NCBI GenBank assembly: GCA_965208025.1
Contig: OZ242302.1
Span: 656,727 to 720,726 of the forward strand
Origin: Rhodothermales bacterium
Lineage (GTDB): Bacteria; Bacteroidota; Rhodothermia; Rhodothermales; Bin80
Reading direction: 5' to 3'
DNA length: 64,000 nucleotides
In this document: positions 21,692 to 58,234 of the stretch, in pieces
How the letters are laid out: each line of letters starts with the position of its first letter
Numbering within the stretch: position 1 is the stretch's first letter
Made by a program: the position numbers and the translations under genes
The notes under the pieces: generated by a model
Seen by the model: only the letters and a program-made list of their open reading frames with translations
Databases searched by the model: none
What the model was told of the DNA's origin: nothing

Positions 21692-21826
21692 TGGAGTTAA
21701 TGTATGACAGGATGTGAATATAGGAAATTTCTACCTTGATCAACAATTCGCTGAGCCTGAGTATCATTCCTGATGTTGCTAAAGATACTTATTGCTTAGA
21801 CCGAGACCGTGACAACTCCCCGCCCA

Positions 21827-22141
21827 GGTTCTATCACGAATCTAGTGGGAAAAGGTCTAACCATCCGCGGATGAGCAAAACCATGCTTCCCATGTGTTCA
21901 AACCTTTTTCTGTCTGTACCAATCATTTTGAGTTCTTGGATTTTGCCGTTTACTGGTTCTGTGATGGTGTTCAATCGTATAGGCTAGAACGCATTACAGG
22001 CTCTTCAAGATGTAACTGATATATTTCGGCAACCGTGATGACTGTTTTGATGTCCCTCTTTCCAACACGAATTATGTACATTTATACAGATTCCGCTAGT
22101 TCATAAAATGGTTCTCATCCCACACAAATTGTGGTAGAACC
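21827..22141 (+). mobile_element. MITE-like non-autonomous element (about 315 bp) with imperfect terminal inverted repeats
   Basis: The left end ggttctatcacgaatctagtggg matches the reverse complement of the right end (cccacacaaattgtggtagaacc) at 17 of 23 positions by hand alignment. There is no credible internal ORF, and I saw no target-site duplication. Confidence 0.3.
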
Positions 22142-22987
22142 GTTCCTATTCGTGGGAGATAGTCCTCAGCCTATATTCTTCATGAGCTTGTCTTTATTCG
22201 AGGTTAATCCGTCACCAAAAAATTAAGTTTATCTGGTGAATTTGGGATTCTGAGGTCTATCCTTGATCCCAAGATGGTCAAGTAGTATCATTTTCATATC
22301 CAGATAGGATGCGTTGAACGAAATGAGTCGCACTATCTTATGTCGTTGATCAGTATCGTCTAGCTTGACCTGCCATGATCGAGGTCTATCAATGTAGTTC
22401 CAGATACAAAAACCTGTGATTCCCACGCTTAGGATCCAAAATATTCAGAAGGTTTTTTGCATATAACTTACATATATGCTGGGAGTTGATGCAATTCTAT
22501 CATCAAGTGCGGATGGTTCCGCCAGAAATCCTCAATATACCCTTGGATGCGTTTTGAGAACTTCATTGGTATTCAAGACCTGTTCTGATGCCAATGAATC
22601 TCTTCGGTTTTGATTTGGACTGACATTACTCCCCCAGTACTGGTCATAATACACCATGGTATATCTCTATAAATTTTCTCGTACTAGCGTGCACAATGCA
22701 CCGTTTTTGAAAAATAGCCCGGTGTTAGACCATGAAAGAAAAAATGTCCCGCTATATACTTACAGTCATTAAGGATTTTCACTGTCGCAGGAAAGAGTAT
22801 ATTGAACTTGTCACTCACACTTCGTCAATCCAGCCTATCCAGACGCCAACATAATCAGATTCAGAAAAACATGGCCCCCCGACAGGCTTCAGGGAGGAAT
22901 GGGCAAAGTTCCGAAGAGGAAAAATTTTGACAATCCAGATATTTTATAACGGAATGGATGATCAACAAATACTTCAAAGAGGCACTC

Positions 22988-23527
22988 CTATGGAAATAAT
23001 TGCAGGTATACCAAGGTAAGACCGAAAGTAGTAAGTATCGTCGCTACAACCCAACGAATAACTCGGACTTCTGAAGAACTGATCTTACCTTCCACTTGAC
23101 TGACCTTACCTTCCACTTGACTGACCTTACCTTCCACTTGACTGACCTTACCTTCCACTTGACTGATCTTACTATCCAATTGATTGATCTTGTCACTCAG
23201 TTCGCCGTTTAGAGTATGAACTTCAACTTGAGCCTCGCTGATTTTGGTAATCATTTCACCGTGTAAGGTATGAACTTCAACTTGGACCTCGTTGATCTTG
23301 TTATTTAGTTCTCTATTTGCGGTATGAACTTCAGTTTGAATATCACTGATCTTGTCACCTAATTCACAGCGTAATTCGTTAATTTCACTCCGCACAAATT
23401 CTTTCGTTGCAACATCACCATGTTGTTTGTGCAACGTATCAGTTAATACAGATAGGAGCACCTCAGCCTGTTTTGGCTTGAATCCAACCTCCGTAAGATG
23501 ATTAGTTATTGACTGTGGATTAATCAT
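22988..23527 (-). CDS. Tail-anchored coiled-coil protein, DUF1640-like, with heptad tandem repeats
   Basis: 179 aa. The N-terminus (LTEVGFKPKQAEVLLSVL...DVATKEFV) resembles DUF1640. Repeated EVHT-x-coil units are followed by QVEGKVS x4 and a C-terminal TM (WVVATILTTFGLTLVYLQLF). Confidence 0.6.
   Translation of the reverse strand: MINPQSITNHLTEVGFKPKQAEVLLSVLTDTLHKQHGDVATKEFVRSEINELRCELGDKISDIQTEVHTANRELNNKINEVQVEVHTLHGEMITKISEAQVEVHTLNGELSDKINQLDSKISQVEGKVSQVEGKVSQVEGKVSQVEGKISSSEVRVIRWVVATILTTFGLTLVYLQLFP
23081..23185. repeat. 21-bp tandem repeat, 5 units (3 identical, 1 with one mismatch, 1 degenerate), in-frame inside the coiled-coil gene
   Basis: The unit gaccttaccttccacttgact occurs at 23102, 23123 and 23144. 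Flanking variant units are at 23081 and 23165. Confidence 0.9.
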
Positions 23528-35323: not shown

Positions 35324-35590
35324 ATGAAACCCCGACGAATCTCCCCCTACTTACTTGCATTGTGTGCTATATTGTTTGCCGGGTGTGGGCCATCGCTCCT
35401 ATCCATGGCAGACTCTTGGAAAGGACTGTCGTGTTGTGGACTCATAATTCTAGTTTTGGACATAATTGCGATTATAGAGATTGCAGGCAGTTCCCGCGAA
35501 ACCGCTTCAAAGCTTATTTGGATCCTGTTTATTATTTTTGCACCAACAATAGGACTCATCGTTTATTACATTTTTGCCAATCGTTCATGA
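35324..35590 (+). CDS. Small PLDc_N-type (cardiolipin synthase N-terminal-like) membrane protein
   Basis: 88 aa with a lipobox-like N-terminus (AILFAGC). ILVLDIIAIIEI...KLIWILFIIFAPTIGLIVYYIF is the PLDc_N two-TM signature. Confidence 0.65.
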   Translation: MKPRRISPYLLALCAILFAGCGPSLLSMADSWKGLSCCGLIILVLDIIAIIEIAGSSRETASKLIWILFIIFAPTIGLIVYYIFANRS

Positions 35591-36828
35591 TGTCTGGAAT
35601 TTCAGTCAGGTGTATGGCACTTGGGATTATCCTCAGATTTACACTTGGTATACCGCCTTGTTATGCGAGTGACGATGAGCCACGCACCGTGATTTTGATC
35701 TCCATTGATGGACTTCGGGCTGATTATTTGACTTCGGAGAACACTCCCAACCTTGTTGAACTGGCTAATCAAGGCGTACGGGCTGAGTATCTCGAGCCAG
35801 TCTTCCCCTCGAAAACTTTCCCAAACCATTACAGCATCATTACAGGACTCTACCCGGCCAACCATGGGATCATAAATAACTCAATGTATGATCCAGATCT
35901 CGGCTTTTTTCGTCTCAGTGACCGAGAGGTACTTTCAAAGACCGCATGGTGGGGAGGAGAACCACTTTGGATTACCGTCCAGAAACATGGTCATACCAGT
36001 GCCACCTATTTTTGGCCTGGCTCCGATGCAGATTCAATCCAGGGATTCCAACCTACTTACTGGATGGAGTATAACCATAGTCTTCCTCATCCGGCCCGGA
36101 TTGATTCAACCGTGGCAGCAATAACTCGTACCCCCCGCCCTGCACTGATCACCACTTATTTTAGCATCGTTGACACCCAAGGACATCGATATGGTCCCGA
36201 TTCTGATGAGATCCGTACTGCTTTGAGAGATGTTGATGCTCAGATTGGTGACTTAATTGCCCGCCTTAAAGAAGCTGGACTCTATGAACACATCAACCTT
36301 GTTGTGCTTGGAGATCATGGAATGGCTGCTACCTCTAAGGATCGGGTCACAATTCTGGACGACTATATTGATCCTGAGGATGTGTGGGTTGTTAGTCTGG
36401 ATGCCATGGGATTTTTGAATGTGAAAGATTCAACCCAGTCAGAGACCTTACTGGATCAACTGAATGAAATGCCCCATGCACGCTGGTTCACCTCTGATTC
36501 AGTTCCAGAGGAGTGGCACTATCGCAATAATGACCGAATCCCCGATTTCGTAGGAATTGCAGATGTGGGATGGCAGATGGCGACACAGTGGAATTATGAT
36601 CGGAATCCCGATTTTTACTCTGGTGGAAACCATGGGTATGATCCTGAACATCCATCCATGCATTCTGCCTTCATTGCTCGCGGACCGCAATTCAAACAGA
36701 ATCTTGTCGTTGAGGGGTTCTCACTCATCCATGTCTATGAACTGTTGTGTGCTGTTCTTCATCTTACCCCCGCAGAAAATGATGGGAACCTTGATGAAAT
36801 TCCCCACCTTCTCCAATTGGCTCCTTAA
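35587..36828 (+). CDS. Ectonucleotide pyrophosphatase/phosphodiesterase (NPP, alkaline-phosphatase superfamily)
   Basis: I trimmed the ORF to MMSGIS (ATGA overlap with the upstream stop). Motifs: ISIDGLRADYL, FPSKTFPNHYSIITGLYP, GDHGM, GNHGYDP. Confidence 0.88.
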   Translation: MMSGISVRCMALGIILRFTLGIPPCYASDDEPRTVILISIDGLRADYLTSENTPNLVELANQGVRAEYLEPVFPSKTFPNHYSIITGLYPANHGIINNSMYDPDLGFFRLSDREVLSKTAWWGGEPLWITVQKHGHTSATYFWPGSDADSIQGFQPTYWMEYNHSLPHPARIDSTVAAITRTPRPALITTYFSIVDTQGHRYGPDSDEIRTALRDVDAQIGDLIARLKEAGLYEHINLVVLGDHGMAATSKDRVTILDDYIDPEDVWVVSLDAMGFLNVKDSTQSETLLDQLNEMPHARWFTSDSVPEEWHYRNNDRIPDFVGIADVGWQMATQWNYDRNPDFYSGGNHGYDPEHPSMHSAFIARGPQFKQNLVVEGFSLIHVYELLCAVLHLTPAENDGNLDEIPHLLQLAP

Positions 36829-37791: not shown

Positions 37792-38328
37792 TTATTCAGG
37801 AACATCCAAGTTCATTATTTCCAATACCTTGTCCCTCAACTCTATTCCAAATACGCTCTGAACTTTCTCTTTGGTGATCCCATTGTTATAAGCATAACCA
37901 ATGATTGATCTAAGTTCTTCATCGGCGTAGTGCTGATCGTCAATTGCGTACATAAAACAAAATTCTTGAATATTGTAGGCTTCTTTATTTTCAATTTCAA
38001 CTATTTTAGCGGTTTTTTCTGCCCAAGTAGCAGCATTCAGTTCTTTGGATACTTTTTCACCTTTTTCAGTGAGGCGGAGCGGGCTCTCCCCGTCTATGAA
38101 GTCAGGATCTGATCCAGAAAAAATTAAAAAAATGTGTCTGTTGATTTGTCGTATATCCTTTCTTATCTCTTGCATAAATTCTTTGAACGAGTTTCGGTCT
38201 GCATCTACAGCACCCTCCCATCTAGATCTATCTGATATTTTTCTTCCAATGCTACGATGTAGTGTGATCGCACTAATGATTACAGAAGCAATAACTGCTA
38301 TTGCAGTAATCCATTCAGGTGTCATCAT
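37792..38328 (-). CDS. Membrane-anchored protein of unknown function
   Basis: 178 aa, visibly AT-rich gene. It has an N-terminal TM (WITAIAVIASVIISAITL) and a soluble C-terminal domain containing SPLRLTEKGEKVSKEL, a helix-turn-helix-like stretch. I recognise no family. Confidence 0.5.
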   Translation of the reverse strand: MMTPEWITAIAVIASVIISAITLHRSIGRKISDRSRWEGAVDADRNSFKEFMQEIRKDIRQINRHIFLIFSGSDPDFIDGESPLRLTEKGEKVSKELNAATWAEKTAKIVEIENKEAYNIQEFCFMYAIDDQHYADEELRSIIGYAYNNGITKEKVQSVFGIELRDKVLEIMNLDVPE

Positions 38329-38711
38329 AGTTACCAGTTAGTTCAAGTTGATAAAATTGGCTATACTCCTACTATGAATCTACTTTTGACTAAGTAGGAA
38401 ATCTAATCTAGTCATGGATTGGAACTACCGCACAAGGAAAAACGGTTGAATAGCCCGGTTATTTATTGGTATCGTCATTGGTTATGGTCCACAATAGGTA
38501 ACATACTTGCTAACGGGTTAGCTAGTTCCCTCGGCAAGTTTTTCTATTAACATCTTTGCAAAAAGTGTTATCCTTGTAAAGCGTGAACGATAATCCCGCT
38601 AGTAGAGTGGCGGAGATTGGACTCTTTGCCTGCCCCTCCAAGTGATTCAGGAAAAATATGATTAATCCCCCATCCAAAGGCTTGAACACATGGGAGGAAT
38701 TATTCAGATAC

Positions 38712-38756
38712 TTTGAGGATGGTTAGACATTTACCCACAAGGTTCGAGGTAGAACC
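38712..38756 (+). mobile_element. Degenerate ISL3-like right-end remnant
   Basis: ctttgaggatggttagacatttacccacaaggttcgaggtagaacc aligns by eye to 56136-56180 (tctgtggaggtttagacctctatccacaaggttcgtggtagaacc), which is the end of an ISL3-type transposase ORF plus its terminal repeat. Confidence 0.45.
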
Positions 38757-38763
38757 TTATTTT

Positions 38764-39597
38764 TTACGGTGAAGAGTTCACGGAGGCTTTCCTCCGCCTG
38801 TTCAATCTGTGCACGCCCCGAAGAACCAGCACAATGATCTGTCCAATCAATGGAGTTGTGGCCAGGATTTCATTTTCCTCACAGGATAATCCATTTTTCA
38901 GATCATCTACGTTCCATTGCTCAAATTTCTTTCGCCCTGGCCACCCATTACGTGATTTGTGCCAAGGCGTTGTTAAATTCATTGATTCGGAAATATCACA
39001 TGTGCAACCACCAAATCCGCCGATCAGAAACAGAGGCTGCTTAGAGCGAAGGGCCAATAGTGCCTCCTCCGCAATGCCAGGCATGCGCCCTCTATAATCA
39101 GCAACCTGACCGCCTAAGAGTATCCGCGCATCCGTACAAGAATTTTGGAACTCACGCATTGCAGTAAGCCCCGTAATCCATTCGTGTTGATCTGGAAAAC
39201 GCGTCTGAAGTTTTTGACGAGCACCCATGGTCATTGGAGTCCCATCACACTCAAGAAGCTTGATTTCAGCTACATCTTGAAGATCTGTAGCAAGTTCATT
39301 CAGTTGATCAACAGGTGTCCTAATGTGAACAGGCCAAGCCAAATGATTCGTGACTCTTATTAGCTTTCCCAAATCTGCAGAAGATGTGTATCGCAGAACC
39401 AGTTGAAAAAGAATCTGAGTGAATCCATGAGTACGCAGGTCGCCTCCGTAAGCAAGATTCACGTCAGCAGCCAATAGTTGAAGTGCCAGCTCAGCCTTGG
39501 CTTCTTTGAGATGTCCCTCACCAAGACCAAGTGCTGCCATGTCTGGGCTAGAAGATGTTGAAACTGCAACAGTTAGTGGTTTTGAAGAGCTACTCAT
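38764..39597 (-). CDS. LOG/SLOG-like Rossmann-fold protein (putative nucleotide or nucleotide-derived ligand binder)
   Basis: 277 aa from MSSSSKPL. The N-terminal strand-loop-helix VAVSTSSSPD...AKAELALQLLAADVNLAYGGDLRTHGFTQ and the distal GRMPGIAEEALLALRSKQPLFLIGGFGG mirror the two glycine-rich motifs of LOG/SLOG proteins (xYGGGxxG and PGGxGTxEE). This was recognised by eye only. Confidence 0.45.
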   Translation of the reverse strand: MSSSSKPLTVAVSTSSSPDMAALGLGEGHLKEAKAELALQLLAADVNLAYGGDLRTHGFTQILFQLVLRYTSSADLGKLIRVTNHLAWPVHIRTPVDQLNELATDLQDVAEIKLLECDGTPMTMGARQKLQTRFPDQHEWITGLTAMREFQNSCTDARILLGGQVADYRGRMPGIAEEALLALRSKQPLFLIGGFGGCTCDISESMNLTTPWHKSRNGWPGRKKFEQWNVDDLKNGLSCEENEILATTPLIGQIIVLVLRGVHRLNRRRKASVNSSP

Positions 39598-39803
39598 GAA
39601 ACTTCCTCCGCAAGCCACTGGCTCAAACTACGAATTTGCAGATCTTCCCACAGTGTTGCAAAAAGATTGATTTCTTCCTTGCCAAGAGGTGGGTCAGGAT
39701 GTAACAAAACCAAAGGTTTCATAATTTTCCCCAACAGAGTCGCCAACGAAATTAACTCTGGAGAGCGAGACATAAATACTATTTCTGTTGCAGCAATTCC
39801 CAC
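39594..39803 (-). CDS. 69-aa ORF translationally coupled to the SLOG-like gene (GTG start)
   Basis: Its TGA stop overlaps the ATG of the downstream gene (ATGA at 39594-39597). An in-frame stop at 39819-39821 caps the maximum length. I recognise no family. Confidence 0.3.
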   Translation of the reverse strand: MGIAATEIVFMSRSPELISLATLLGKIMKPLVLLHPDPPLGKEEINLFATLWEDLQIRSLSQWLAEEVS

Positions 39804-39825
39804 TAAGTCATTAATTTCTTAAAAT

Positions 39826-41480
39826 TGGGGAATTTCTTTTTTGTTTTCGCAAACGTTTGGCTTATTTTTCGGTCAGACTGTTTTGCTTTAGCCTTGTTTT
39901 GTTGAGAACTTCTCCTGATTGGAGCGTCCATCTTCTTCCTGCCCAGAGATTTGTCTGTGTTTTTCCATAAAACTTGCTGATCAACCATGAAAAAGAAGTC
40001 ACTTCATCAAGCCCCCAAGCGTTTGAGAAAACCGTTTCTGCTTGAAGCTGTCCGGGAGTGTTTTGCCTCCATTGCGGACCCGATTGCGGGGCGGGGCTTC
40101 GTGCTTACGGATTCCCTCATGTCGGGGCTTGCCATCTTTTCGCTCAAGGATTCTTCGTTGCTTCAATTTGATCAAGCGGTGAGGGATGAAGCCCTCCCTG
40201 TCCATCGTAATCTACAAACTCTGTTCGGTGTCGCGCGGGTTCCTTCGGACTCTGGATTGCGGAAGCGTCTGGATGGGTTGGATCCACGAAGTTTGCGGGA
40301 TGCGTTCAAGAGACTGTTTTCCTTGGTGCAACGGGGGAAAGTTCTTGAGGACTACAAGCATATGGACGGGCATCTTCTTCTATCGTTGGACGGAACGGGT
40401 TATTTTTCTTCCAAGACGGTCCATTGTGTACACTGTTGCGAGAAGCATCATCGGGATGGGAGCACGACGTATTATCATCAGATGCTCTGTGGAGCGATTG
40501 TGAGTCCAGATCAAAAGGAAGTGATTCCATTGGCACCGGAGCCGATCTTGAACACGGATGGGGCCAAGAAAAACGATTGTGAGCGAAACGCATCCAAGCG
40601 GTTTATTGAGGATTTCAGGCGGGAGCCCCCGCACTTGAAGGTGATCTTTCTTGAAGATGGGATTGCATCGAATGCCCCGCATATCCGAGAGTTAGAGGCA
40701 AAGAATCTTCGGCGAGGGGCAAAGCCGGGCGATCATAAGTTTTTGTTTCAGGAACTGGAGAGCAAGGCCCAGACATGGGAGACGAAGGAAGACGACGGCA
40801 CCGTTCACCAATTCAGCTATCTCAACCATGTTCCGCTGAACGCATCCAATCCAGATGTAAAGGTGAATCTGCTTGCGTATCATGAGATCAAACCTGGAAC
40901 AAAGAAGCGTCCAACTCCCAAGATGAAACGGTTTTCATGGGTAACGGATTTAGCGCTAACCAAAGACACGCTCATGAAGATAATGCGAGCAGGACGGGCA
41001 AGATGGAGGATTGAGAACGAGACGTTTCACACATTAAAGAACCAAGGCGATCACTTTGAGCATAACTTTGGACATGGTCATCAGTATCTATCCAGCGTGC
41101 TCGGATCCCTGATGCTCCTTGCATTTTTGGTGGATCAGATTGAGATGCGGTGCGATGAATACTTCAGGATCGCTCTGGCGAAGATGACGCGACTCCTGTA
41201 CGTCCGAGAGAGAGTACGGGGAATACTTCGGGAGTTTGTGGTAGAGAGTTGGGATTTTTTGTACAAAGGGATTGCAGAGGGATTCAAGATTACCGTACAA
41301 ATTGATTCATCGTAGCCAAATCAGACCTGAGGGCGGCGAGGCAGCAAAAGTGATTTTAGGTGCCATGGGATAGCTGTCTCCACGCGTGAGCAGATGGGCG
41401 AAACTAGGGACAGCTTGAACCTTAATTGAAGAAAAAACCTGTTTGAGAAAAAGGGAAATGCAATCACGTTACAGAAAACT
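39826..41480 (+). mobile_element. Insertion sequence carrying the 39987-41315 transposase (ends approximate)
   Basis: There is imperfect inverted similarity between about 39833-39885 and about 41420-41475 (atttc..ttttt..caaac..ggt(t)ca(a)g(a)ctg), judged by hand. This segment looks more GC-rich than its flanks. Confidence 0.35.
39987..41315 (+). CDS. DDE transposase (IS4-like superfamily)
   Basis: 442 aa. LLLSLDGTGYFSS, a Cys/His cluster (VHCVHCCEKHHRDG), IFLEDGIASN and RWRIENETFHTLKNQGDHFEHNFGHG form a DDE triad context typical of this transposase group. Confidence 0.85.
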   Translation: MKKKSLHQAPKRLRKPFLLEAVRECFASIADPIAGRGFVLTDSLMSGLAIFSLKDSSLLQFDQAVRDEALPVHRNLQTLFGVARVPSDSGLRKRLDGLDPRSLRDAFKRLFSLVQRGKVLEDYKHMDGHLLLSLDGTGYFSSKTVHCVHCCEKHHRDGSTTYYHQMLCGAIVSPDQKEVIPLAPEPILNTDGAKKNDCERNASKRFIEDFRREPPHLKVIFLEDGIASNAPHIRELEAKNLRRGAKPGDHKFLFQELESKAQTWETKEDDGTVHQFSYLNHVPLNASNPDVKVNLLAYHEIKPGTKKRPTPKMKRFSWVTDLALTKDTLMKIMRAGRARWRIENETFHTLKNQGDHFEHNFGHGHQYLSSVLGSLMLLAFLVDQIEMRCDEYFRIALAKMTRLLYVRERVRGILREFVVESWDFLYKGIAEGFKITVQIDSS

Positions 41481-41571
41481 ACTTCATAAAACCAAATTTG
41501 GTGATTTGAACAGAGTTAGTGGGAGCATCTGTAAAATGAACGGATTTGTGAAATGTTAATATTATGATCTA

Positions 41572-43305
41572 TTGTGTACTTATGTCTACTTTCTGATGAC
41601 TATTTATGCCGAATTCTTCACGTCTCCCACCTACAAAGCCCAAATCTACTATGAAGCCCTCCGTGCCTACTATGTGGAGGGAATCTCTGGAACCGAAGTC
41701 GCCAAGCGGTTTGACATCCCTTATGGCACCTTCAAGAATCTTTGCTATGAGTTTCGCAAATCGCCCAATGCTTTGTTCTTTTGGACTCCTCCCAAATCTG
41801 CTTCCAAGCCCGCTCCTGATTCACTGCGTGCGCGCATCGTGGAGCTCCGAAAAACACACAACGTTTCGATCCATCAAATTCCCTCTCTGCTACGGAAAGA
41901 AGGGCTTGATGCAACCCCGTCTTATATCAGTAAGGTGATCCGTGCGGCAGGGCTTCCACGCCTGCCCACTCGGCCCCCTTCACCTAAACCCGCACAGGCC
42001 ACGCGTGCTGATTGTCGCGCGCTCAACTTATCACCACATAAGTTCTCTACCAGTTTTGGCGGACTTTTTCTCTTCCTGCCAGACTTGGTTAAGATGGAGA
42101 TGGAGTCCTTAGTCCAACATTTGCCAGGATCCAAGTTCATTCCTGCTCCCTGTATGATCCGTTCCTTGTTAGCTCTCAAGCTCTGGGGGATTGGACGACA
42201 TACTCATGTGATGGCAAACACCATGGACGAGGGACTCGCACTCTTTGCCGGACTCAATGGCATTCCAAAACGGTCCACATTAAGCGAATACAGCTCCCGA
42301 TGTGATCCCCACTTCACGCAACCGTTTACCCATGGATGGCTGGATGCCGCTGCGCATCTTGGCGCAGGGCTGGGCCGTGGCACTTCGTTTGATCTAGATT
42401 TTCACACCATCCCCTATCATGGAGACAAAGCACTCTTGGAAAAACACTATATCAGTAAGCGGAGTCGGCGACAATTAGGGGTTTTGACCTTTCTGGCGCG
42501 GGATGCCAACCATCGCGTCTTTTCCTATGCCGATACGACGGTGCACAAAGAGAACCATTCTCTGGCAATCCAGAACTTTGTGGATGACTATGCGCAGCGC
42601 ACGGGTACGAAACCCTCTGAGTTAGTATTTGATAGTGGTGTGACCACCTATGAGCAGTTGGGACGCTTAACGCAGCAGAAGATTCACTTTATTACCTTGC
42701 GCCGCCGTCACAAATCGGTCATGGATGAGATCCAGAATCTCCCCCAAACGCAATGGCGCGCTATCAAGCTGACCAACATAGGACGCAACTATCGGAACCC
42801 AAGTGTCCTGGAGCAGACTGTGAAGCTGAAAGGGTATCCCGACGAGTTACGACAAATTGCCATTCAAGGGCTTGGACACGACCGCATGATTCTCTTGATC
42901 ACCAATCAAATGGAACGGTCCGCTTCCCATTTGATTGATCGCTATGCACGGCGGATGGTCATTGAGAATGTCATCAGCGATACGATTGACTTCTTTCATA
43001 TGGATGCCCTCAGCGCGGCTATTCCGATGAATATTCATGTGGACGTTCAACTCACGGTGATCGCCAGTCTGCTCTACCGAATCCTTGGCCTCCGAGCGAA
43101 TGAGCAGTGGAGCGTAGCTGAAAATCGTACCCTCTATGAATACATAGTTCCCAAACGTGCAACGATCCGATTGACCAAGGATGAGATCATCGTCAAGTAT
43201 CCCCGTCGATCCCACAACCCGTTGCTCATGGGGGCCAATTATCATAAAACAGAGCAACCGATTCCTTGGCTTGATAACAAAATTCTGAAAATTCAGTTCA
43301 CGTGA
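41572..43305 (+). CDS. Second, unrelated DDE-type transposase with N-terminal HTH
   Basis: 577-aa ORF; the start is likely the internal MTIYAEFF. Motifs: HTH GISGTEVAKRFDIPYGTF, FDLDFHTIPYHGD, LVFDSGVTTYEQL, YARRMVIENVISD. Confidence 0.75.
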   Translation: MCTYVYFLMTIYAEFFTSPTYKAQIYYEALRAYYVEGISGTEVAKRFDIPYGTFKNLCYEFRKSPNALFFWTPPKSASKPAPDSLRARIVELRKTHNVSIHQIPSLLRKEGLDATPSYISKVIRAAGLPRLPTRPPSPKPAQATRADCRALNLSPHKFSTSFGGLFLFLPDLVKMEMESLVQHLPGSKFIPAPCMIRSLLALKLWGIGRHTHVMANTMDEGLALFAGLNGIPKRSTLSEYSSRCDPHFTQPFTHGWLDAAAHLGAGLGRGTSFDLDFHTIPYHGDKALLEKHYISKRSRRQLGVLTFLARDANHRVFSYADTTVHKENHSLAIQNFVDDYAQRTGTKPSELVFDSGVTTYEQLGRLTQQKIHFITLRRRHKSVMDEIQNLPQTQWRAIKLTNIGRNYRNPSVLEQTVKLKGYPDELRQIAIQGLGHDRMILLITNQMERSASHLIDRYARRMVIENVISDTIDFFHMDALSAAIPMNIHVDVQLTVIASLLYRILGLRANEQWSVAENRTLYEYIVPKRATIRLTKDEIIVKYPRRSHNPLLMGANYHKTEQPIPWLDNKILKIQFT

Positions 43306-43477: not shown

Positions 43478-45364
43478 TCAAAGCGTTTGGTTAATCATCG
43501 AAAAGCATGTCTCAAAATTATTGAGTGTGTGATCCGAGAATGTGGGTAGGAACTCATTTCGGTGGCGGAGTAACATATCAGCAGGTTTACCATGATGAAA
43601 ATCTCCCCCTTTCTTACGCGCAATACGCTTCACAATCGGATCGTTTCCTTTTAGATTTGATGCCTTCAGTTCCTTTTCAAAAGCTTTATTGTACAGCGCC
43701 AGATAATCTTCCACATCAAATACATCCTCAATATCGCCGAATTGACCATTTAGCACTCGATCAATAGTTATGATCCGCCTTTCCTTTATATGATTTTGTT
43801 TCATAAGTAATTGTAGCTTCTGGTGTCCTTCAGTACGTGAATCTAACAATACTGTAAAATCAAGATTCTTACCTCCGAGTAATGCCACAAAAGTCGGAAC
43901 GAGATCCGCACCACCTACGGGAATTATTGTCCACCGCGAGTTGAGACCTTCTCTATTTATTTCAATCAAATAATCAGACAAGACAGAGAGGTAAGCGTGG
44001 TCCGAGGTGCCCTCCACCACGAGATTGTCTGGACCAATGAACAGGTTTTGGGCCAGGTCGTAGCCGAGTGCTCCCTGTAGCGGAAACAATGTATCACGAT
44101 CTGTGGCCAATATATCCTGTGAAATTATGGCACCTTTGTCTGGACCACAATCCTCAATCACTCGTGCGCGTTCAAGTTTGCCGGGTTGAATCATAAATGG
44201 AGAGTGCGTTGTGTAGATTACTTGGCAACGATTTGCCAATCGGTCATCTATGAATTTCAAGAAGTCAGACTGCGCCCTCGCATGTAATCCAATTCCTGGC
44301 TCATCCAATAGGATAACCACTGGCTTATCACTAGTTTCATACTCCGAGAATGCAGCAAGAAATGAAAAGAACCACTGAAAACCAGAGGAACGTTCTTCAA
44401 ATGGTAATGACAGCATATGCCTATCATCTCGCATCCTAAAGCGCAGTTCTTTGAGACCCTGTTCCTTTGTGATATCAATCTCAACACGAAGTTCGGGATT
44501 GGTTGTCCAATACTTAAGCACCTCTCGGGTGATGCTATTTGCTACATTCTCAAGCTCTCTCTTTCGCTCCTCGTAATCTTCCGCGAGAAGATATTCATTT
44601 TCCGCACCTGCCTGCATTAGCAGTGATTTCGCAGTTCTCTGACTCTCATCAAGTTGATCATCATTTGAATTGAAAAGTTCTTGAATTTTTACCACACCTG
44701 GTAGTTTATTGAACTCAGAGAAATAGAAGAACGCTGGAATTATCTGCTCTAAATTGGACTGGACCAACTGCGAGAAATCTTGATGCTCATTGAGGTAGTC
44801 TTTAATTCTTGAGTTTAACTGCTCAACAACGGATGCCATTGTGGGATCATCTTCTGATCTTTCTGACAAACCATCAACTATTCCTTGCAGGTCCTCAATT
44901 GAATTTGCTCTGCGAACAGCATCATCAATCGAATTGGATATTGACTCCTGATCTATCAGATTGCTTACTACTTTTGACTCTGACACATCATAGCGATAGT
45001 CAATTGTACCATCATACTTTCTACAAACAGTGATTTCGTTGGAAGCAATCACACCATCACCCAGTGTAGAGTGTAGGATGTCTATATCTGAGCCGTCAAG
45101 TGTGAACCATGCGGTTACTGCCTCAACATCATTGATATTAATGTCCTCTCTACGATGTTTTTTTTGAAGCCACGCTGGATAATGTCTAATCGCTTTAAAT
45201 TCTTTGTTACCTTGAGCGGGGTTGAGTCGGTACAGGGCTTTCAGGAAGGCAGTTTTGCCAGACTCATTCTTCCCAACAAGGCAGGTGACGTCGTCTTGAA
45301 TGTCAACTTCGGAAGAATCCAATATATTGCGAAACATTTGAACCTTTACTCGTGTCAGTTTCAT
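43478..45364 (-). CDS. OLD-family nuclease (ABC-type ATPase fused to Toprim)
   Basis: 628 aa. It starts MKLTRVKVQMFRNI, with Walker A VGKNESGKTAFLKAL, Walker B VILLDEPGIGLH, H-loop TTHSPF, and Toprim LVVEGTSDHAYL plus IIPVGGA. Confidence 0.85.
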   Translation of the reverse strand: MKLTRVKVQMFRNILDSSEVDIQDDVTCLVGKNESGKTAFLKALYRLNPAQGNKEFKAIRHYPAWLQKKHRREDININDVEAVTAWFTLDGSDIDILHSTLGDGVIASNEITVCRKYDGTIDYRYDVSESKVVSNLIDQESISNSIDDAVRRANSIEDLQGIVDGLSERSEDDPTMASVVEQLNSRIKDYLNEHQDFSQLVQSNLEQIIPAFFYFSEFNKLPGVVKIQELFNSNDDQLDESQRTAKSLLMQAGAENEYLLAEDYEERKRELENVANSITREVLKYWTTNPELRVEIDITKEQGLKELRFRMRDDRHMLSLPFEERSSGFQWFFSFLAAFSEYETSDKPVVILLDEPGIGLHARAQSDFLKFIDDRLANRCQVIYTTHSPFMIQPGKLERARVIEDCGPDKGAIISQDILATDRDTLFPLQGALGYDLAQNLFIGPDNLVVEGTSDHAYLSVLSDYLIEINREGLNSRWTIIPVGGADLVPTFVALLGGKNLDFTVLLDSRTEGHQKLQLLMKQNHIKERRIITIDRVLNGQFGDIEDVFDVEDYLALYNKAFEKELKASNLKGNDPIVKRIARKKGGDFHHGKPADMLLRHRNEFLPTFSDHTLNNFETCFSMINQTL

Positions 45365-45641: not shown

Positions 45642-47051
45642 CTACTTCATTAGCATCATTTTGCCACTAAGACGATGACCAGCAACATCTAACTGGTAGA
45701 CGTAAGTACCAGAAGAGAGATCCGTAGCATTAAAGGTGGCGGTGTATTTACCGGCAACTAAATGCTCATCAACAAGCGTGGCGACCTCCCTGCCAAGCAC
45801 ATCATAGACTTTGAGGGTAGCCAGACCCGCGTCCTTCATTTCAAACTCAATATTGGTTTGAGGATTGAATGGATTTGGATAGTTTTGAGACAGAGTAAAT
45901 CCTTGAGGGATTTCCGATGGATCACGCTGAATGCTCGTAGGGCTTTGGTACTTGAATTTTTGGAGCGATGGTACTCCACCAGTATCCCACAAACCTACAT
46001 ATACATACATTCCATCAGGTGAGAATCCCATGGCACGCGTCTTCTGTTTATCATACTCACCTTCAGATAAGTTATATGTGAGACTGTCCACAAATTCGTC
46101 CGTCGCAGGATCAAGAGCGTACCAAGTCAGAAGAGTGTAAGCTCTTGAATCTCCTCCAATTCCAGAATGCTCTGTTGAATTACCAAACCAGAGATAATCA
46201 GTTCTGGGATCTCGTGAACTTGACTCGGCAAGTAGTCCTGGACGAACAAGTCCAGTTGTGTCAGCAAAATTTGCTTGGGTAGTGTAGGGAGAAAACTCAT
46301 CGGAGCGAGTATACTTGACTAAACCAGGTTTCGAGGTTCCTACTGCATCAGGCCAATAAACAGAATTACCATCAGCAGTTACCTCTAAATTACGCGCAAT
46401 ACCAATCGCAGAATCAGTTACAAGTCCTTCAAATCCAAATTCTGAATCAAATATACCGACGGGGTGTCCTCGTGAGACTACTTGCCCCAAATAAATGTTG
46501 CCATTTTCGTCTATCCCTGGTGAAACAGGTTGCGAGTAATTGCTAGCCGCAGATTCACCAAGAGTTACGGAGTTCATTACTTCACCAGTCGCATGATCAA
46601 ACCTAACAATTCTGCCGCCGAGATCACTCCAGGTTCGTCTTAGCGTGACAATGATGTCCCCATTATGATCTGATTTGACACCAGTAACGAAAGCAGGCCC
46701 GCCAAATCCCCCGAGAGTATCTCCTTCAACCACGCGAATTGGATCCCATGGTCTTGTACCGTCAGGATTAAATACGTGAAGAGGAGCGGACAAATATAAA
46801 GTATCACCATTCTCTCCAATCACTGGGCTGTTACTGGCTTGATCAAGCCAAATTTTTCCCGCGGCATCCACGGCAACCCCATGTGTTGCAAGTGTAAACG
46901 AAGAGTCTGGGGGGAAAACGCTCACAAATTCCCAATTCTGAGCACTGACAGAGCTACTCAAAACCAGAACTGAGGCAAAGAATAGAATCGTTTTGCGAAT
47001 CATGGTAAAAAGAGTTTTGTTAAAAGTATTGAATAAAGAAAAAGCTAACAT
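45642..47051 (-). CDS. T9SS-secreted beta-propeller-like protein (C-terminal sorting domain)
   Basis: 469-aa ORF; the likely start is MIRKTILFF at 47003, with a signal peptide. The CTD is LSQNYPNPFNPQTNIEFEM...LKVYDVLGREVATLV...SGTYVYQL...KMMLMK. Confidence 0.8.
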   Translation of the reverse strand: MLAFSLFNTFNKTLFTMIRKTILFFASVLVLSSSVSAQNWEFVSVFPPDSSFTLATHGVAVDAAGKIWLDQASNSPVIGENGDTLYLSAPLHVFNPDGTRPWDPIRVVEGDTLGGFGGPAFVTGVKSDHNGDIIVTLRRTWSDLGGRIVRFDHATGEVMNSVTLGESAASNYSQPVSPGIDENGNIYLGQVVSRGHPVGIFDSEFGFEGLVTDSAIGIARNLEVTADGNSVYWPDAVGTSKPGLVKYTRSDEFSPYTTQANFADTTGLVRPGLLAESSSRDPRTDYLWFGNSTEHSGIGGDSRAYTLLTWYALDPATDEFVDSLTYNLSEGEYDKQKTRAMGFSPDGMYVYVGLWDTGGVPSLQKFKYQSPTSIQRDPSEIPQGFTLSQNYPNPFNPQTNIEFEMKDAGLATLKVYDVLGREVATLVDEHLVAGKYTATFNATDLSSGTYVYQLDVAGHRLSGKMMLMK

Positions 47052-55988: not shown

Positions 55989-56017
55989 GGTTCTACCACA
56001 CAAATTGTGATAGAACC
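55989..56017. repeat. 29-bp near-perfect palindrome made of IS-end sequence
   Basis: In ggttctaccacacaaattgtgatagaacc, the arms ggttctaccac and gtgatagaacc are complementary except for one position. Confidence 0.7.
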
Positions 56018-56029
56018 CTTTGCCACTCA

Positions 56030-56180
56030 CAATCCAACGCCAAGGCAGAACGCATTAACGGCAAAATTCAAGAAATCAAAACGGCCGGGAGAGGATACCG
56101 AACGTTTGAAAAATTCAGCAGTGCGATTCTATTCTTCTGTGGAGGTTTAGACCTCTATCCACAAGGTTCGTGGTAGAACC
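56030..56180 (+). pseudogene. ISL3-family transposase C-terminal fragment plus right terminal repeat
   Basis: The translation ...SNAKAERINGKIQEIKTAGRGYRTFEKFSSAILFFCGGLDLYPQGSW-stop is the characteristic ISL3 transposase tail. The stop lies inside the gtggtagaacc end motif (56170-56180). Confidence 0.6.
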
Positions 56181-56284
56181 GTATTTATTATTGGATGCTC
56201 CTCAGAGAAAAGTTAGACAGAATTACAAGTATACCTGCTCCAGATTAGCGGAAGGAAGGAGAACCTTCCTTCCGCTGATCGTCG

Positions 56285-58234
56285 TCACCTGACGAGCACC
56301 ATGGAGCGGGAATGTCTGAATTGTCCCCATTCCAGGGTATAGACATACTGTCCACTGGAAACCGCCATTCCAGAATCAGAGAATCCATCCCAAGTGACAG
56401 AATGCGTACCTTCCGCGAACTGTTCATCATTGATTAGAGTGCGGACAAGGCGTCCAGTTACATCATACACCTTAACGCTCACGCGCTTATCTAATGGCAG
56501 TTCAAAAGAAAATGTAGTGGAAGGATTAAATGGGTTAGGATAATTAGAATGCAACTCAAAATCCGACGGAACAATCACCTTATCCCCAGTAATGAATGTT
56601 GGAGTGAGTCCCTCCCCTGAAAGTACCAACATAAAGCTACGGAAAGGGTGGGGGACCGCAGACTCAGTAGTACGGGTATAAGAACTATCAGCAGGGTTAA
56701 AGACCTCGTTGTAAACGTAAACGCTATCTGGAACCCCAGAGATGGAGACTGCTACCTCATTGTGCCCATCTTCGTCTGTATCACCCAAATATGCAAACTT
56801 CCCAAAAAGTAATCCTCCCGCACCCAATTCGTCATCTTCGTAGGTCGTCGTGAGATACGTCGATTGGACACCTGCACTATCTCGATTCACAGTATCAAAA
56901 ATCATTCCCTCTGGCATTTCAAATTCAATGTGACTTACTTTGTAGCTACTCGGATCTTCAACATTGCCCATACCATCATAGTCAACGATTGTAACCGGTC
57001 TTGGAGGATTTCCAGCCGCAAATTCTGCAGGAGTATAGGGGCGACCAGTTCCTATCAGTTCTGGAATACCATCTTTATCAATGTCTCCATGCGTAAGCCC
57101 CCAATCAGAAACATCATTCAACAGAGGATAGATCACATTTTCTTCGGTAATCATTAGCGGATCTTCCCCCGATTCGTAGTTGATGATGGCAAGACTACGG
57201 TCTTCAAAGGAGGGGCAGTACACCTCATCATCTCCATTCTCATCCATATCCACGACCGTACATCCAAAATATGGGACATCATCAATTTCCGAAGCGTAAT
57301 AGTTAATATTCTCTCCCTCGGAACTAACGTATGTGTCAGGTCCTGTTACATCTATGTTGGTGAAGTTCAGAAAATTCCAGCTGGACAGGGCAATCTCGTA
57401 GGTGCCATCTCCATCCAAATCCGCAGGAACAATTCCAAAAGCACTTCCACCTCCACGATCAACGGGATCGTAATCTTCTGTTGCTCTACTACTAAACCTT
57501 GCTTCAAGTGTAATGGTAGTTAAAGGCGTTCCAAGATCATTTGCCGTCACGATATACCAGCTATCATATCGGTTGTCAGCACCGTTATTTCCAAATAGGA
57601 GCTCATCTATCCCATCTCCATCTACATCAGCAACCGTAATCTGTTCAGTCCTGAACCGATCTGGAACATCCATATCAAAATCCCACAAGTCAGGTAAAAA
57701 ACTGAATGTATTGTCACCTGTAGCTTCAAGGATTCCAAGGCGAGGTCCTTCCAAAACGGCATTTATTCCACTGTCTTCTGGAATGTCGTGCCCTATGAAA
57801 ACATAGATTTCCCCAAAACCATCACCATCCAAGTCCCCGACTCCAACACCTCTGGCATTCTCTGTAGAGTTAGATTCCAGATTCATTGAAAGGGAGGAGT
57901 AAATAAGTTCCCAAGTACCATCTCCAAGATTTTCAAGCACATGAGCTCGGCCACCACCAGAATAATCAGTCAGAACAACCTCAATTTTTCCATCACCATC
58001 TAAATCAAATGGTCTAGAAATACTTGGTGCACTGCGGTGAAGGCCGGGAGCATAAGGGGGGAGATCTGGAACTTGAAAAAGCGGATGAATTGGTCCAACA
58101 TCCGATTGGCCTGGCACCCACTCGAACACTTGTTCCTGAGCAATCGCAGGCGAAATGAAAAAGAGAAGAGACGTAAATGAAAGCAGTACAAATCTATGCA
58201 TCTGACAATTGATCTGGTTAGAAAGTGAAATCAT
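56285..58234 (-). CDS. T9SS-secreted FG-GAP/VCBS repeat protein
   Basis: 649-aa ORF; the likely start is MHRFVLL at 58201. It has at least six Ca-binding-like repeats (DLDGDGKIE, DLDGDGFGE, DVDGDGIDE, DLDGDGTYE, DIDKDGIPE, DTDEDGHNE). CTD: LHSNYPNPFNPSTTFSFELP...VKVYDVTGRLV...SGQYVYTL. Confidence 0.85.
   Translation of the reverse strand: MISLSNQINCQMHRFVLLSFTSLLFFISPAIAQEQVFEWVPGQSDVGPIHPLFQVPDLPPYAPGLHRSAPSISRPFDLDGDGKIEVVLTDYSGGGRAHVLENLGDGTWELIYSSLSMNLESNSTENARGVGVGDLDGDGFGEIYVFIGHDIPEDSGINAVLEGPRLGILEATGDNTFSFLPDLWDFDMDVPDRFRTEQITVADVDGDGIDELLFGNNGADNRYDSWYIVTANDLGTPLTTITLEARFSSRATEDYDPVDRGGGSAFGIVPADLDGDGTYEIALSSWNFLNFTNIDVTGPDTYVSSEGENINYYASEIDDVPYFGCTVVDMDENGDDEVYCPSFEDRSLAIINYESGEDPLMITEENVIYPLLNDVSDWGLTHGDIDKDGIPELIGTGRPYTPAEFAAGNPPRPVTIVDYDGMGNVEDPSSYKVSHIEFEMPEGMIFDTVNRDSAGVQSTYLTTTYEDDELGAGGLLFGKFAYLGDTDEDGHNEVAVSISGVPDSVYVYNEVFNPADSSYTRTTESAVPHPFRSFMLVLSGEGLTPTFITGDKVIVPSDFELHSNYPNPFNPSTTFSFELPLDKRVSVKVYDVTGRLVRTLINDEQFAEGTHSVTWDGFSDSGMAVSSGQYVYTLEWGQFRHSRSMVLVR

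Follow-up and report, generated by a model that had tools for sequence, protein, structure and literature searches.

Organisation of the locus

Within the window, that is, the whole stretch of 64,000 nucleotides that we analysed, a single full-length gene of SLOG cluster 2 (called SLOG2 here) lies on the minus strand between remains of insertion sequences (IS) and directly behind a short open reading frame (Table 1). SLOG2 is read from an ATG, with an alternative GTG start at 39618, and this ATG shares bases with the TGA of the frame before it, an overlap that the initial annotation had described correctly and that we place on the minus strand. The upstream frame, which had been taken for a co-translated 69-aa partner, is annotated in the source genome as a 59-aa gene with an ATG at 39773 (P0146).

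Table 1 Features of the SLOG2 locus, in window coordinates
Feature	Position	Strand	Description and basis
ISL3-type relic, 3' end	38676..38756	(+)	77-83% identical copies elsewhere in the window
SLOG2 (SLOG cluster-2 gene), full-length, orphaned	38764..39597	(-)	277 aa, read 39597 to 38764; PF18163 match and AF2 model
ATGA stop/start overlap, bigTIR-to-SLOG2 junction	39594..39597	(-)	reverse complement is ATGA, read from the sequence
bigTIR 3' stump	39594..39797	(-)	about 64-67 codons from the 3' end of a gene for a ~390-aa TIR protein, TIR domain absent; BLASTP, tblastn, alignment A2
'69-aa ORF', chimeric frame	39594..39803	(-)	GTG start at 39801-39803, inside the IS terminal repeat
IS-A, truncates bigTIR	39798..41524	(+)	~1.7 kb; 442-aa DDE transposase at 39987-41315; ends tentative
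Second transposase gene, IS1380-like	41572..43305	(+)	577 aa; directly after IS-A; DDE_Tnp_1 1.4e-9
AAA_15 ATPase (AriA/OLD/GajA-like)	43478..45364	(-)	neighbour outside the SLOG system; Pfam AAA_15 2e-30

SLOG2 belongs to the SLOG family

SLOG2 is a genuine SLOG-family protein, and the similarity of its fold to the SLOG domain of ThsA suggests that it is a nucleotide sensor that would bind a ligand. A Pfam profile search, as proposed in the initial annotation, upheld the SLOG placement: PF18163 (LD_cluster2, SLOG cluster 2) was matched over residues 7-226 with an E-value of 6.9e-64 and 216.4 bits, well above the gathering cut-off of 25.3 and well outside chance, and no second Pfam family was found at E<=1, leaving PF18163 as the sole match. 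The protein carries two glycine-rich signatures, NLAYGGDLRTHGFTQ and GRMPGIAEEALLALRSKQPLFLIGGFGG. Modelling of the protein alone by AlphaFold (AF2), which had likewise been proposed, gave a confident SLOG/LOG-type fold (pLDDT 88.4, pTM 0.88) with a helical C-terminal extension. The best Foldseek matches of this model were 7uxs (the SLOG domain of BcThsA with 3'cADPR), ThsA, TRPM2 and LOG; the ThsA SLOG structures among them were 7uxs, 8bto and 6lhx, and the LOG structures ranked 18-41 as weaker matches. Model and matches together support a Rossmannoid fold of the SLOG/LOG type, so that both the fold and the analogy with the ThsA ligand sensor, first read from the letters of the sequence, hold in the light of PF18163, AF2 and Foldseek. 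A PDB sequence-profile search with SLOG2 returned nothing useful.

The protein had also been described as much longer than LOG enzymes, with an extra middle region. It is indeed about 80 aa longer, but both its length and its middle region are normal for the PF18163 family: a protein search found 1178 homologues, and most of those listed measure 260-285 aa, which makes the 277 aa of SLOG2 typical. All 51 columns that are invariant in the family (alignment A1) are retained in the window copy, which shows 5 deviations over 80 near-invariant columns (family median 2, 90th percentile 6.3), and Arg200, in the motif GGFGGCTRD, has become Cys at a position conserved to 99%. The polar residues that are invariant across phyla are H29, D19, D53, R55, H91, R148, R158, E177/E178, D201 and E204.

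The upstream frame aligns with the end of a TIR gene

From its pairwise and multiple alignments, on which the kinship rests, we conclude that the upstream ORF is the tail of a TIR gene severed by an insertion sequence and that the locus has no small partner gene. In BLASTP it aligns with the end (residues 305-368) of a TIR_2 protein of 368 aa from a related locus, L001 (50% identity, E 6e-20), and it shares the invariant C-terminal columns F309, R312, E315, P335, P337, L339, E343, L346 and W362 of these proteins, here called bigTIR (alignment A2, numbered by its first sequence). A tblastn search across the window with bigTIR gave one match only, at 39788-39597, and we found no TIR domain in the window, the only part of bigTIR left being its non-TIR C-terminal 64 residues; nor did tblastn detect a ThsB-like coding sequence anywhere in it. 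The earlier remark that no signal-generating enzyme is present in the window is borne out as regards the TIR domain, yet a remainder of a TIR gene is present in the form of the 69-aa ORF.

Intact operons in related genomes

Comparison of homologous neighbourhoods, also suggested at the outset, covered 80 loci from related species-representative genomes, and the gene upstream of SLOG2 proved in most of them to be an intact bigTIR: SLOG2 directly follows it in 58 loci and is fused with it in 2, and in the others bigTIR is fragmentary (11) or absent (9), the decay fragments measuring 97-328 aa. In 48 loci an intact ThsB-type TIR gene lies no more than 4.5 kb away, for the most part directly downstream; one further locus has it as a fusion and 10 have fragments. 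Counting intact and fused forms together, bigTIR is present in 60 of the 80 loci and ThsB in 49, and the neighbours are TIR genes or their fragments in 71. The intact order is bigTIR (~390 aa, with TIR_2 in mid-protein), SLOG2 (~275 aa, PF18163) and a ThsB-type TIR (~200 aa) belonging to PF08937, and an ATGA, GTGA or TTGA overlap joins the first two at 49 of 55 intact junctions in other genomes. L001, for example, has a 368-aa TIR_2 protein, SLOG2 and ThsB_TIR followed by a DRT4 reverse transcriptase, L063 and L076 read smallTIR-ThsB-ThsB-bigTIR-SLOG2, and several loci have 3-4 TIR genes. ThsB may be accessory, since seven loci with intact bigTIR and SLOG2 lack it in the surrounding 4.5 kb. 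The catalytic-Glu motif (W-x3-E in bigTIR, WE in ThsB) is retained in 59 of 63 bigTIR and 49 of 60 ThsB proteins. A PDB sequence-profile search with bigTIR gave only weak matches to plant TIRs.

Fusions recur in the family and serve as rosetta-stone evidence. Among the best 150 cluster representatives, about 28 are TIR_2-SLOG2 proteins (650-745 aa), and further combinations are SLOG2-ThsB (L049), SLOG2-Patatin, Patatin-TIR_2-SLOG2 and SLOG2-TPR; the AF2 model of one TIR_2-SLOG2 fusion, confident over its full length (pLDDT 85, pTM 0.88), matched TIR domains and ThsA structurally. The PF18163 set comprises 2427 clusters at 50% identity from many phyla, and the hosts of intact relatives include sponge- and soil-associated phyla, Pseudomonas, Rhizobium, Burkholderia, Klebsiella (on a plasmid) and Nitrosopumilaceae archaea. 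Interruption of bigTIR by an IS, or its truncation, is seen also in L002, L003/L015, L029 and others; such recurrent damage, with fragments only in 11 of the 80 loci, is in keeping with frequent inactivation of an effector whose abortive-infection activity is costly.

Insertion sequences around the remnant

The element upstream, IS-A, had been noticed before; it begins at about 39798 rather than 39826. Its candidate 12-bp inverted repeats, TCCCACTAAGTC (39798-39809) and, as reverse complement, TCCCACTAACTC (41513-41524), match at 11 of 12 positions, and a search for a target-site duplication around it found none. Its transposase matches Pfam DDE_Tnp_1 weakly and has plasmid relatives annotated as ISNCY family, and a degenerate copy, 65% identical, lies at 22177-22846. 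IS-A, an ISNCY/IS4-like element, supplies the GTG start of the '69-aa ORF'. The 577-aa transposase behind it matches the NCBIfam IS1380 profile at 1.3e-11, under the cut-off, and an end search revealed no terminal repeats for this IS1380-like element.

On the other side, the ISL3 end scar reported at 38756 is confirmed as a relic of a transposase C-terminus with a terminal piece, 7 bp from the SLOG2 stop codon, where homologous operons have the ThsB-type TIR gene. Two further stretches, 21826-21907 (-) and 56138-56190 (+), are related to it at 77-83% identity. The C-terminus encoded by the one at 56 kb (...GKIQEIKTAGRGYRTFEKFSSAILFFCGGLDLYP) is typical of ISL3 transposases, and the 38.7-kb copy holds the same end with a frameshift. 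No relatives of the window transposases were found among the homologous loci that we fetched.

Relation to Thoeris and other SLOG systems

Among characterised systems, type III Thoeris comes nearest; it was reportedly described by van den Berg et al. in 2024 from P. aeruginosa L0872. As far as the accessible parts of the sources go, it consists of several TIR proteins and a SLOG effector (10.64898/2025.12.03.692087; PMC13276650), named ThsD by Yirmiya et al. 2025, and its mode of signalling is still uncharacterised (both 10.64898/2025.12.03.692087). Its make-up was pieced together from secondary citations, the TIR1-4 sequences in the available part of Yirmiya 2025 Table S1, and loci L087 and L088; these two loci are closely related to the published system (TIR4 71-72%, TIR2 70% and TIR1 54% identity) and serve as proxy for the L0872 operon. 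Our intact relatives resemble it in having several TIR genes (TIR_2-type and ThsB-type) around a stand-alone SLOG protein without an effector domain, an arrangement that the window copy lacks, and L001 agrees with L087 and L088 in its TIR_2 gene directly upstream of, and overlapping, the SLOG gene and in its ThsB_TIR downstream. The SLOG protein itself is different, however: the close relatives of the published system have PF18180 (SLOG cluster 3, 187-194 aa) where ours have PF18163, and an hhalign profile-profile comparison of SLOG2 (A1) with the SLOG3 family gave 1.5% probability. The upstream TIR has ~390 aa with conserved N- and C-terminal regions here and ~200 aa there (~190-220 aa in TIR4 homologues), and the TIRs are only 25-43% identical to L0872 TIR1-4, in the TIR core alone, which does not amount to orthology. 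The bigTIR motif SSREWCR was not found in the available part of Yirmiya 2025 Table S1.

With type I Thoeris the intact operons share a ThsB-family TIR (PF08937), and the best structural match of SLOG2 is the BcThsA SLOG domain with 3'cADPR (7uxs); the coupling or fusion of SLOG2 to an NAD-processing domain is also comparable to the SIR2-SLOG fusion in ThsA. SLOG2, however, has no SIR2 domain and belongs to a different Pfam SLOG family, structural alignments with ThsA reach 12-17% identity (TMq 0.39-0.48, TMt up to 0.60), and PADLOC gave no ThsA match for it. Here the sensor is usually a protein of its own, translationally coupled to the putative effector, which is a TIR. Thoeris is recognised by a TIR-domain gene in its operon, and such a gene is present in most homologous loci and missing from the window copy.

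Burroughs, Aravind and colleagues are said to have predicted TIR-SLOG conflict systems computationally in 2015, and the Pfam 'SLOG cluster' families, PF18163 included, presumably derive from that work. The loci studied here agree with those predictions in family and in the co-occurrence of SLOG and TIR genes within defence islands; 'TIR-SLOG-based antiviral systems' are also cited in the accessible part of PMC9503650. Judged by its sequence and its relatives, the window holds a decayed member of this widespread and computationally known kind of system. With LOG phosphoribohydrolases SLOG2 shares a Rossmannoid fold and two glycine-rich loops, but it is ~80 aa longer, has the helical C-terminal extension and stands in a defence rather than a metabolic context, and no LOG profile from Pfam or NCBIfam matched it at E<=1.

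Probable decay of the operon and a proposed model of the intact system

The locus is very probably the remnant of a TIR-SLOG-TIR operon broken by insertion sequences, and its best explanation overall, which we consider likely, is that of a decayed three-gene Thoeris-like anti-phage operon. An ISNCY/IS4-like element would have inserted at about codon 300 of bigTIR, leaving the C-terminal ~64 codons, which still overlap SLOG2 in the ancestral ATGA, and IS debris (the ISL3 end) would have replaced the downstream thsB. The missing signal enzyme would once have been present, bigTIR having been destroyed and the ThsB-type TIR deleted. The initial annotation had left a choice between a new partner arrangement and an operon broken by the IS: the stump and the intact homologous operons uphold the second, and the first falls because what looked like a small partner is a pseudogene remnant, the 80 loci showing a full-length TIR gene or a 97-328-aa decay fragment in its place. 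SLOG2, with its Cys at a 99%-conserved Arg, is the sole full-length gene left of the operon, and the TIR-SLOG system is almost certainly non-functional in this genome. Since SLOG2 and the stump keep family-invariant residues, the break may be recent, and some residual expression or function would be possible. Orphan SLOG2 copies might persist by still binding, and hence buffering, the signal.

In the intact system, one or more ThsB-type TIRs would sense infection and turn NAD+ into an ADP-ribose-derived signal, which SLOG2 would bind much as the ThsA SLOG domain binds 3'cADPR; SLOG2 would then activate its coupled or fused partner, mainly the bigTIR NADase and, in some fusions, a patatin lipase, and the infection would be aborted. 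This division of labour, with ThsB as signaller, SLOG2 as sensor and bigTIR as effector, is drawn by analogy with Thoeris and put forward tentatively. The identity of the signal could not be taken from the ThsB clade (43-50% identical to type VI, 2'cADPR, TIRs), and we rejected this candidate because, according to the accessible parts of the sources, the same TIR cluster accompanies type VIII effectors, which are linked to canonical cADPR. The intact relatives may form a distinct Thoeris type, sister to type III, in which a stand-alone SLOG sensor would activate a TIR NADase in trans; such a type would be marked by a SLOG protein from another family and by a ~390-aa TIR dedicated to it, with ThsB-type TIRs present or not.

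Alternative readings

The same broken operon can be read with the intact SLOG2 as effector or enzyme, perhaps a LOG-like N-glycosidase with a nucleotide or the signal as its substrate, and with all TIR proteins, bigTIR included, as infection sensors or signal producers, a reading that we regard as rather unlikely. The many polar residues invariant across phyla could also be explained by an enzyme in place of a pure sensor, LOG enzymes are among the structural matches, the 3-4 TIR genes of several loci (L063, L076) are reminiscent of multi-sensor ThsB sets, and Yirmiya et al., in the accessible part of the text (10.64898/2025.12.03.692087), treat the stand-alone SLOG protein of type III as the effector. 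What speaks against this is the lack of any Pfam LOG-family match at E<=1 and the repeated fusion of SLOG2 to known effector domains (TIR_2, patatin), an arrangement that a sensor module would be expected to have and that the SIR2-SLOG protein ThsA shows.

That SLOG2 and a co-translated peptide of ~60-70 aa form a genuine and possibly new two-gene module, the peptide for instance binding or stabilising the SLOG protein, is very improbable. The ATGA coupling is intact, the stump retains all invariant residues of the bigTIR C-terminal segment, and a 59-aa gene is annotated in the source genome; yet across the 80 loci this segment occurs without exception as the C-terminus of bigTIR or in a 97-328-aa fragment, an independent small ORF precedes SLOG2 in none of them, a word-based search of 5.8 billion proteins with the 74-aa stump found no independent homologue but the stump itself, and the GTG start lies within IS sequence. 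No sigma-70-like promoter was found upstream on the minus strand in a scan whose consensus is uninformative for Bacteroidota-type promoters. By this comparison the homologous loci largely refute the module, and with it the small co-translated partner of the initial annotation, whose supposed gene aligns with the bigTIR C-terminus and starts in an IS end.

Capture of SLOG2 as passenger of a composite transposon, as the initial annotation had suggested, has equally little to commend it. IS DNA does come as close as 7 bp to the 3' end and ~200 bp to the 5' end of the gene, and two ISNCY transposases flank the K. pneumoniae plasmid copy, but the flanks in the window are unrelated (an ~80-bp frameshifted ISL3 relic against an ISNCY/IS4-like and then an IS1380-like element), neither matching inverted ends nor target duplications were found, and the cargo is a truncated operon, in which a cut gene points to destruction rather than capture. 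Least credible of all is a metabolic LOG-type enzyme (a cytokinin or nucleotide phosphoribohydrolase) lying by chance between IS elements, for which the LOG-like Rossmannoid fold, the two Gly-rich loops and the weaker Foldseek LOG matches could be cited, but PF18163 is the sole Pfam match at E<=1, TIR genes or fragments adjoin in 71 of the 80 genomes, and the homologues lie among TIR and defence genes, in the vicinity of R-M, Abi and DRT systems, metabolic operons being absent from the loci examined.

Defence context

For the window, the main result is a corrected annotation, with a real SLOG gene and, in place of a 'small partner', the pseudogene remnant of bigTIR. Of wider value is the PF18163 family, whose type III Thoeris-like operons have a different SLOG protein and fall outside the models of PADLOC 2.0.0, which has none covering SLOG2 or bigTIR; the searchable literature yielded nothing on PF18163 or LD_cluster2 and no published phage-defence assay for any PF18163 system. 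Intact copies occur in tractable hosts, such as K. pneumoniae (plasmid pKpnB199, NZ_MK552108.1, proteins WP_044715444/445/446), Pseudomonas baetica 25P2F9 and Burkholderia sp. USMB20, and make the role of a stand-alone SLOG protein in TIR signalling directly testable. Near the SLOG2 operons of relatives we found type I R-M, AbiE and DRT4, and in the window itself the AAA_15 ATPase beyond the transposase genes matches PADLOC AriA (1.5e-31) as well as Old and GajA.

A new PF18163 member: the SLOG gene

The initial annotation had recognised a LOG/SLOG-like fold from two glycine-rich segments, both of which are present in the 277-aa ORF (an alternative in-frame GTG at 39618 gives 284 aa). This fold assignment holds: the protein matches Pfam PF18163 (LD_cluster2, "SLOG cluster2"; E 6.9e-64, score 216 bits, cut-off 25) and no other family in Pfam, NCBIfam or PADLOC, while a confident AlphaFold2 model (pLDDT 88.4, pTM 0.88; built on 25 homologs) finds as its best PDB matches the SLOG domain of BcThsA with bound 3'cADPR (7uxs), which bears out the suggested analogy to the ThsA sensor, and full-length ThsA. 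TRPM2, through its ADPR-binding N-terminal region, and LOG enzymes are further top matches; these structures share 12-17% sequence identity with the protein. Judged by its sequence, the gene (SLOG2) adds a new member to the PF18163 family.

Among 5.8 billion proteins searched, 1178 homologs were recovered; among the matches listed, all carry PF18163 and most are 260-285 aa long, so the "extra" length remarked on earlier is usual for the family. When 1.84 billion cluster representatives were searched with a profile, 2427 clusters passed E<=1e-3 and 537 passed E<=1e-30, and the nearest named homologs are Rhodothermales and Bacteroidota MAGs. All 51 columns that are invariant in the family alignment are conserved in the window copy. 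At the 80 near-invariant columns it shows 5 deviations (median 2), one of them within the GGFGGCTRD motif, where Cys replaces an Arg that is 99% conserved.

The upstream ORF is the stump of a TIR gene

The overlap of the two ORFs is real and can be read directly from the minus strand: positions 39594-39597 read ATGA on this strand, and the SLOG2 start codon thereby overlaps the TGA of the upstream 69-aa ORF. What does not survive is the idea that this ORF encodes a co-translated small partner. It is 50% identical (E 6e-20) to the last 64 residues (305-368) of a TIR protein from the homologous locus L001, it shares the invariant C-terminal positions of bigTIR, the ~390-aa TIR_2-domain family encoded directly upstream of SLOG2 in relatives (F..R.PE, YPDPPL, EE..L and W; 21-sequence alignment), and its GTG start lies inside a candidate terminal repeat of IS-A, an ISNCY/IS4-like insertion sequence. 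The ORF is, on this homology, a gene stump, the C-terminal end of bigTIR. The homology stops at ~39797, and the end of IS-A begins at 39798. The earlier suggestion of an operon broken by the IS proved right. With tblastn against the 64-kb window, the whole L001 TIR protein matched solely at 39788-39597, and a ThsB query gave no match.

On the other side, an ISL3 relic ends 7 bp from the SLOG2 stop codon, the position at which relatives encode ThsB. We judge the proposal of a mobilised, IS-bracketed cassette to be wrong. Two more ISL3-type element ends occur at 21826-21907 (minus) and 56138-56190 (plus), and in the latter copy (about 56000-56190) the coding sequence for an ISL3 transposase C-terminus can still be recognised, which implies that the family has been active and has decayed at several window sites. 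Part of the IS-A transposase gene (40265-40980) also has a degenerate copy at 22177-22846 (minus; 65% nucleotide identity over ~700 bp).

Features of the window around SLOG2
Feature	Coordinates	Strand	Remarks
Type I phosphodiesterase / nucleotide pyrophosphatase	35362-36828	plus	PF01663, E 7e-99
178-aa ORF	37792-38328	minus	N-terminal transmembrane helix; only a weak PADLOC WH_III-A match, E 0.011
ISL3 relic	38676-38756		Transposase C-terminus and element end; ~80 bp, frameshifted
SLOG2 ORF, 277 aa	ATG 39597 to stop 38764-38766	minus	ORF read from sequence
69-aa ORF	39594-39803	minus	From GTG; frame open to 39818; source genome annotates a 59-aa version (protein P0146)
IS-A, 442-aa DDE transposase	39987-41315		Candidate 12-bp terminal repeats 39798-39809 / 41513-41524; relatives annotated ISNCY
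Second transposase gene, 577 aa	41572-43305		IS1380-like; after IS-A
AAA_15 ATPase, 628 aa	43478-45364	minus	Best PADLOC matches AriA (PARIS), Old, GajA
T9SS C-terminal sorting-domain (Por_Secre_tail) proteins	45642-47051, 56285-58234	both minus

Most relatives carry an intact TIR-SLOG2 operon

In L001 a TIR_2 protein (368 aa) is followed by SLOG2 (274 aa), with a 4-nt overlap of stop and start, and then by a ThsB_TIR (201 aa); the "new partner arrangement" once entertained for the window is judged wrong. We scanned relatives at one genome per species, which yielded 80 loci (L007-L086), and classed the ORFs called in them with HMMs trained on the first neighbours. Directly upstream of SLOG2, bigTIR was intact in 58 loci, fused to SLOG2 in 2, present as fragments only in 11 and absent from 9; a ThsB-type TIR within 4.5 kb was intact in 48, fused in 1, fragmentary in 10 and absent from 21. 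Of 55 intact junctions, 49 show a stop/start overlap between bigTIR and SLOG2 (ATGA, GTGA or TTGA), and the ATGA coupling in the window, by this comparison, represents the ancestral junction of the operon. Three or four TIR genes are present in some loci (e.g. L063 and L076, smallTIR-ThsB-ThsB-bigTIR-SLOG2), and the catalytic-glutamate TIR motif is kept in 59 of 63 bigTIR and 49 of 60 ThsB sequences.

Decay recurs elsewhere: L002 and L003/L015 have C-terminal bigTIR stubs of 126-134 aa, those of L003/L015 adjoining a DDE transposase, and in L029 bigTIR is interrupted by an IS. What the window preserves is almost certainly a non-functional copy of a system whose kind is known.

Relation to type III Thoeris and possible division of labour

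In its layout the SLOG2 operon resembles type III Thoeris, described as several TIR proteins with a non-ThsA-type SLOG effector and uncharacterised signalling (10.64898/2025.12.03.692087; PMC13276650). Using the four TIR domain sequences of P. aeruginosa L0872 (Table S1 of 10.64898/2025.12.03.692087), we found close relatives (TIR4 71-72%, TIR2 70% and TIR1 54% identity) in operons ordered TIR_2, TIR_2, SLOG, ThsB_TIR. Their SLOG, however, is PF18180 (cluster 3, 187-194 aa) rather than PF18163, with a profile-profile probability of 1.5% between SLOG2 and SLOG3, and their TIR4-type partner is ~200 aa, whereas bigTIR is ~390 aa. Membership of type III thus fails on SLOG family and TIR orthology. 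Neither SLOG2 nor bigTIR nor SLOG3 is covered by a model in PADLOC 2.0.0. The PF18163 family and its TIR association are already known computationally, and we found no experimental work on it in the searchable literature; the lasting interest lies in the operon family, with intact copies in tractable hosts.

About 28 of the best 150 cluster representatives measure 650-745 aa and have a C-terminal SLOG2 domain, and all four scanned are TIR_2-SLOG2 fusions, an arrangement also found in L012 and a Gloeothece plasmid protein; one such fusion gave an AlphaFold2 model that is confident overall (pLDDT 85, pTM 0.88), with structural matches to TIR domains and ThsA. Further combinations are SLOG2-ThsB (L049), SLOG2-patatin, patatin-TIR_2-SLOG2 and SLOG2-TPR. 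The representatives with patatin phospholipase, patatin plus TIR_2, or TPR repeats (P0149, P0281, P0171, P0222) widen the PF18163 effector repertoire beyond TIR alone. Such repeated attachment to effector-type domains (TIR NADase, patatin lipase) is, by analogy, the ThsA sensor pattern.

From these fusions we tentatively infer that ThsB is the signal maker, SLOG2 the sensor and bigTIR the activated partner: on infection, ThsB-type TIRs would make an ADPR-derived signal, SLOG2 would bind it, and signal-bound SLOG2 would activate the coupled bigTIR, or patatin in fusions. The main rival, only somewhat less likely, is that SLOG2 acts as effector or enzyme in its own right, with all TIRs as sensors. 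As to the signal in the ThsB-to-SLOG2 scheme, the operon ThsB shares 43-50% identity with type VI (2'cADPR) TIRs, but the same TIR cluster also accompanies type VIII effectors, linked to canonical cADPR signalling in 10.64898/2025.12.03.692087. Because the cluster is shared by both types, the ThsB clade does not reveal the signal, and we rejected the deduction of 2'cADPR from it.

Hosts and genomic context

Hosts of the 80 loci include Rhodothermales, Longimicrobiales and Gemmatimonadota, Acidobacteriota, Binatia, Latescibacterota, Dehalococcoidia, Alpha- and Gammaproteobacteria (among them Pseudomonas, Rhizobium and Burkholderia) and Nitrosopumilaceae archaea. Two MAGs of Nitrosopumilaceae, which are ammonia-oxidising archaea (L035, L060), carry complete bigTIR-SLOG2-ThsB operons; these are ~50% identical to bacterial ones, which implies recent inter-domain transfer, probably within sponge or sediment communities.

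Plasmid copies occur in P. veronii and on K. pneumoniae pKpnB199, a conjugative IncFIB/IncHI1B clinical plasmid. The latter (L089; NZ_MK552108.1 109904-112742) has an apparently intact TIR and bigTIR-SLOG2 set bracketed by two ISNCY transposase genes, possibly a mobile unit, and is a convenient exemplar for experiments.

Near the operons of relatives lie, among others, DRT4, type I R-M and AbiE; in the window, the AriA/OLD-like ATPase lies just past the two IS elements. In L026, L037, L043 and L002, SLOG2 stands without a TIR partner directly beside type I R-M hsdM/hsdS (L002 retains a 134-aa bigTIR stub), and in L044 Schlafen AlbA_2 and HATPase_c_4 share one open reading frame with SLOG2. Such neighbours may act as alternative partners, or their proximity may reflect no more than the packing of defence islands.

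Other features of the window

The PF01663 nucleotide-cleaving enzyme, ~2 kb from the SLOG remnant, a nucleotide-signalling relic, is probably unrelated housekeeping. The 178-aa ORF just beyond the ISL3 relic has no homolog in the fetched SLOG2 loci. The Por_Secre_tail proteins probably reflect a Bacteroidota/Rhodothermota-type host genome, as do the nearest named SLOG2 homologs. Finally, a 179-aa coiled-coil protein (Pfam CCDC90-like; 22988-23527, minus) contains in-frame tandem repeats at 23057-23346 (21 nt x 6 copies and 54 nt x 3 copies) and may be a variable repeat protein.
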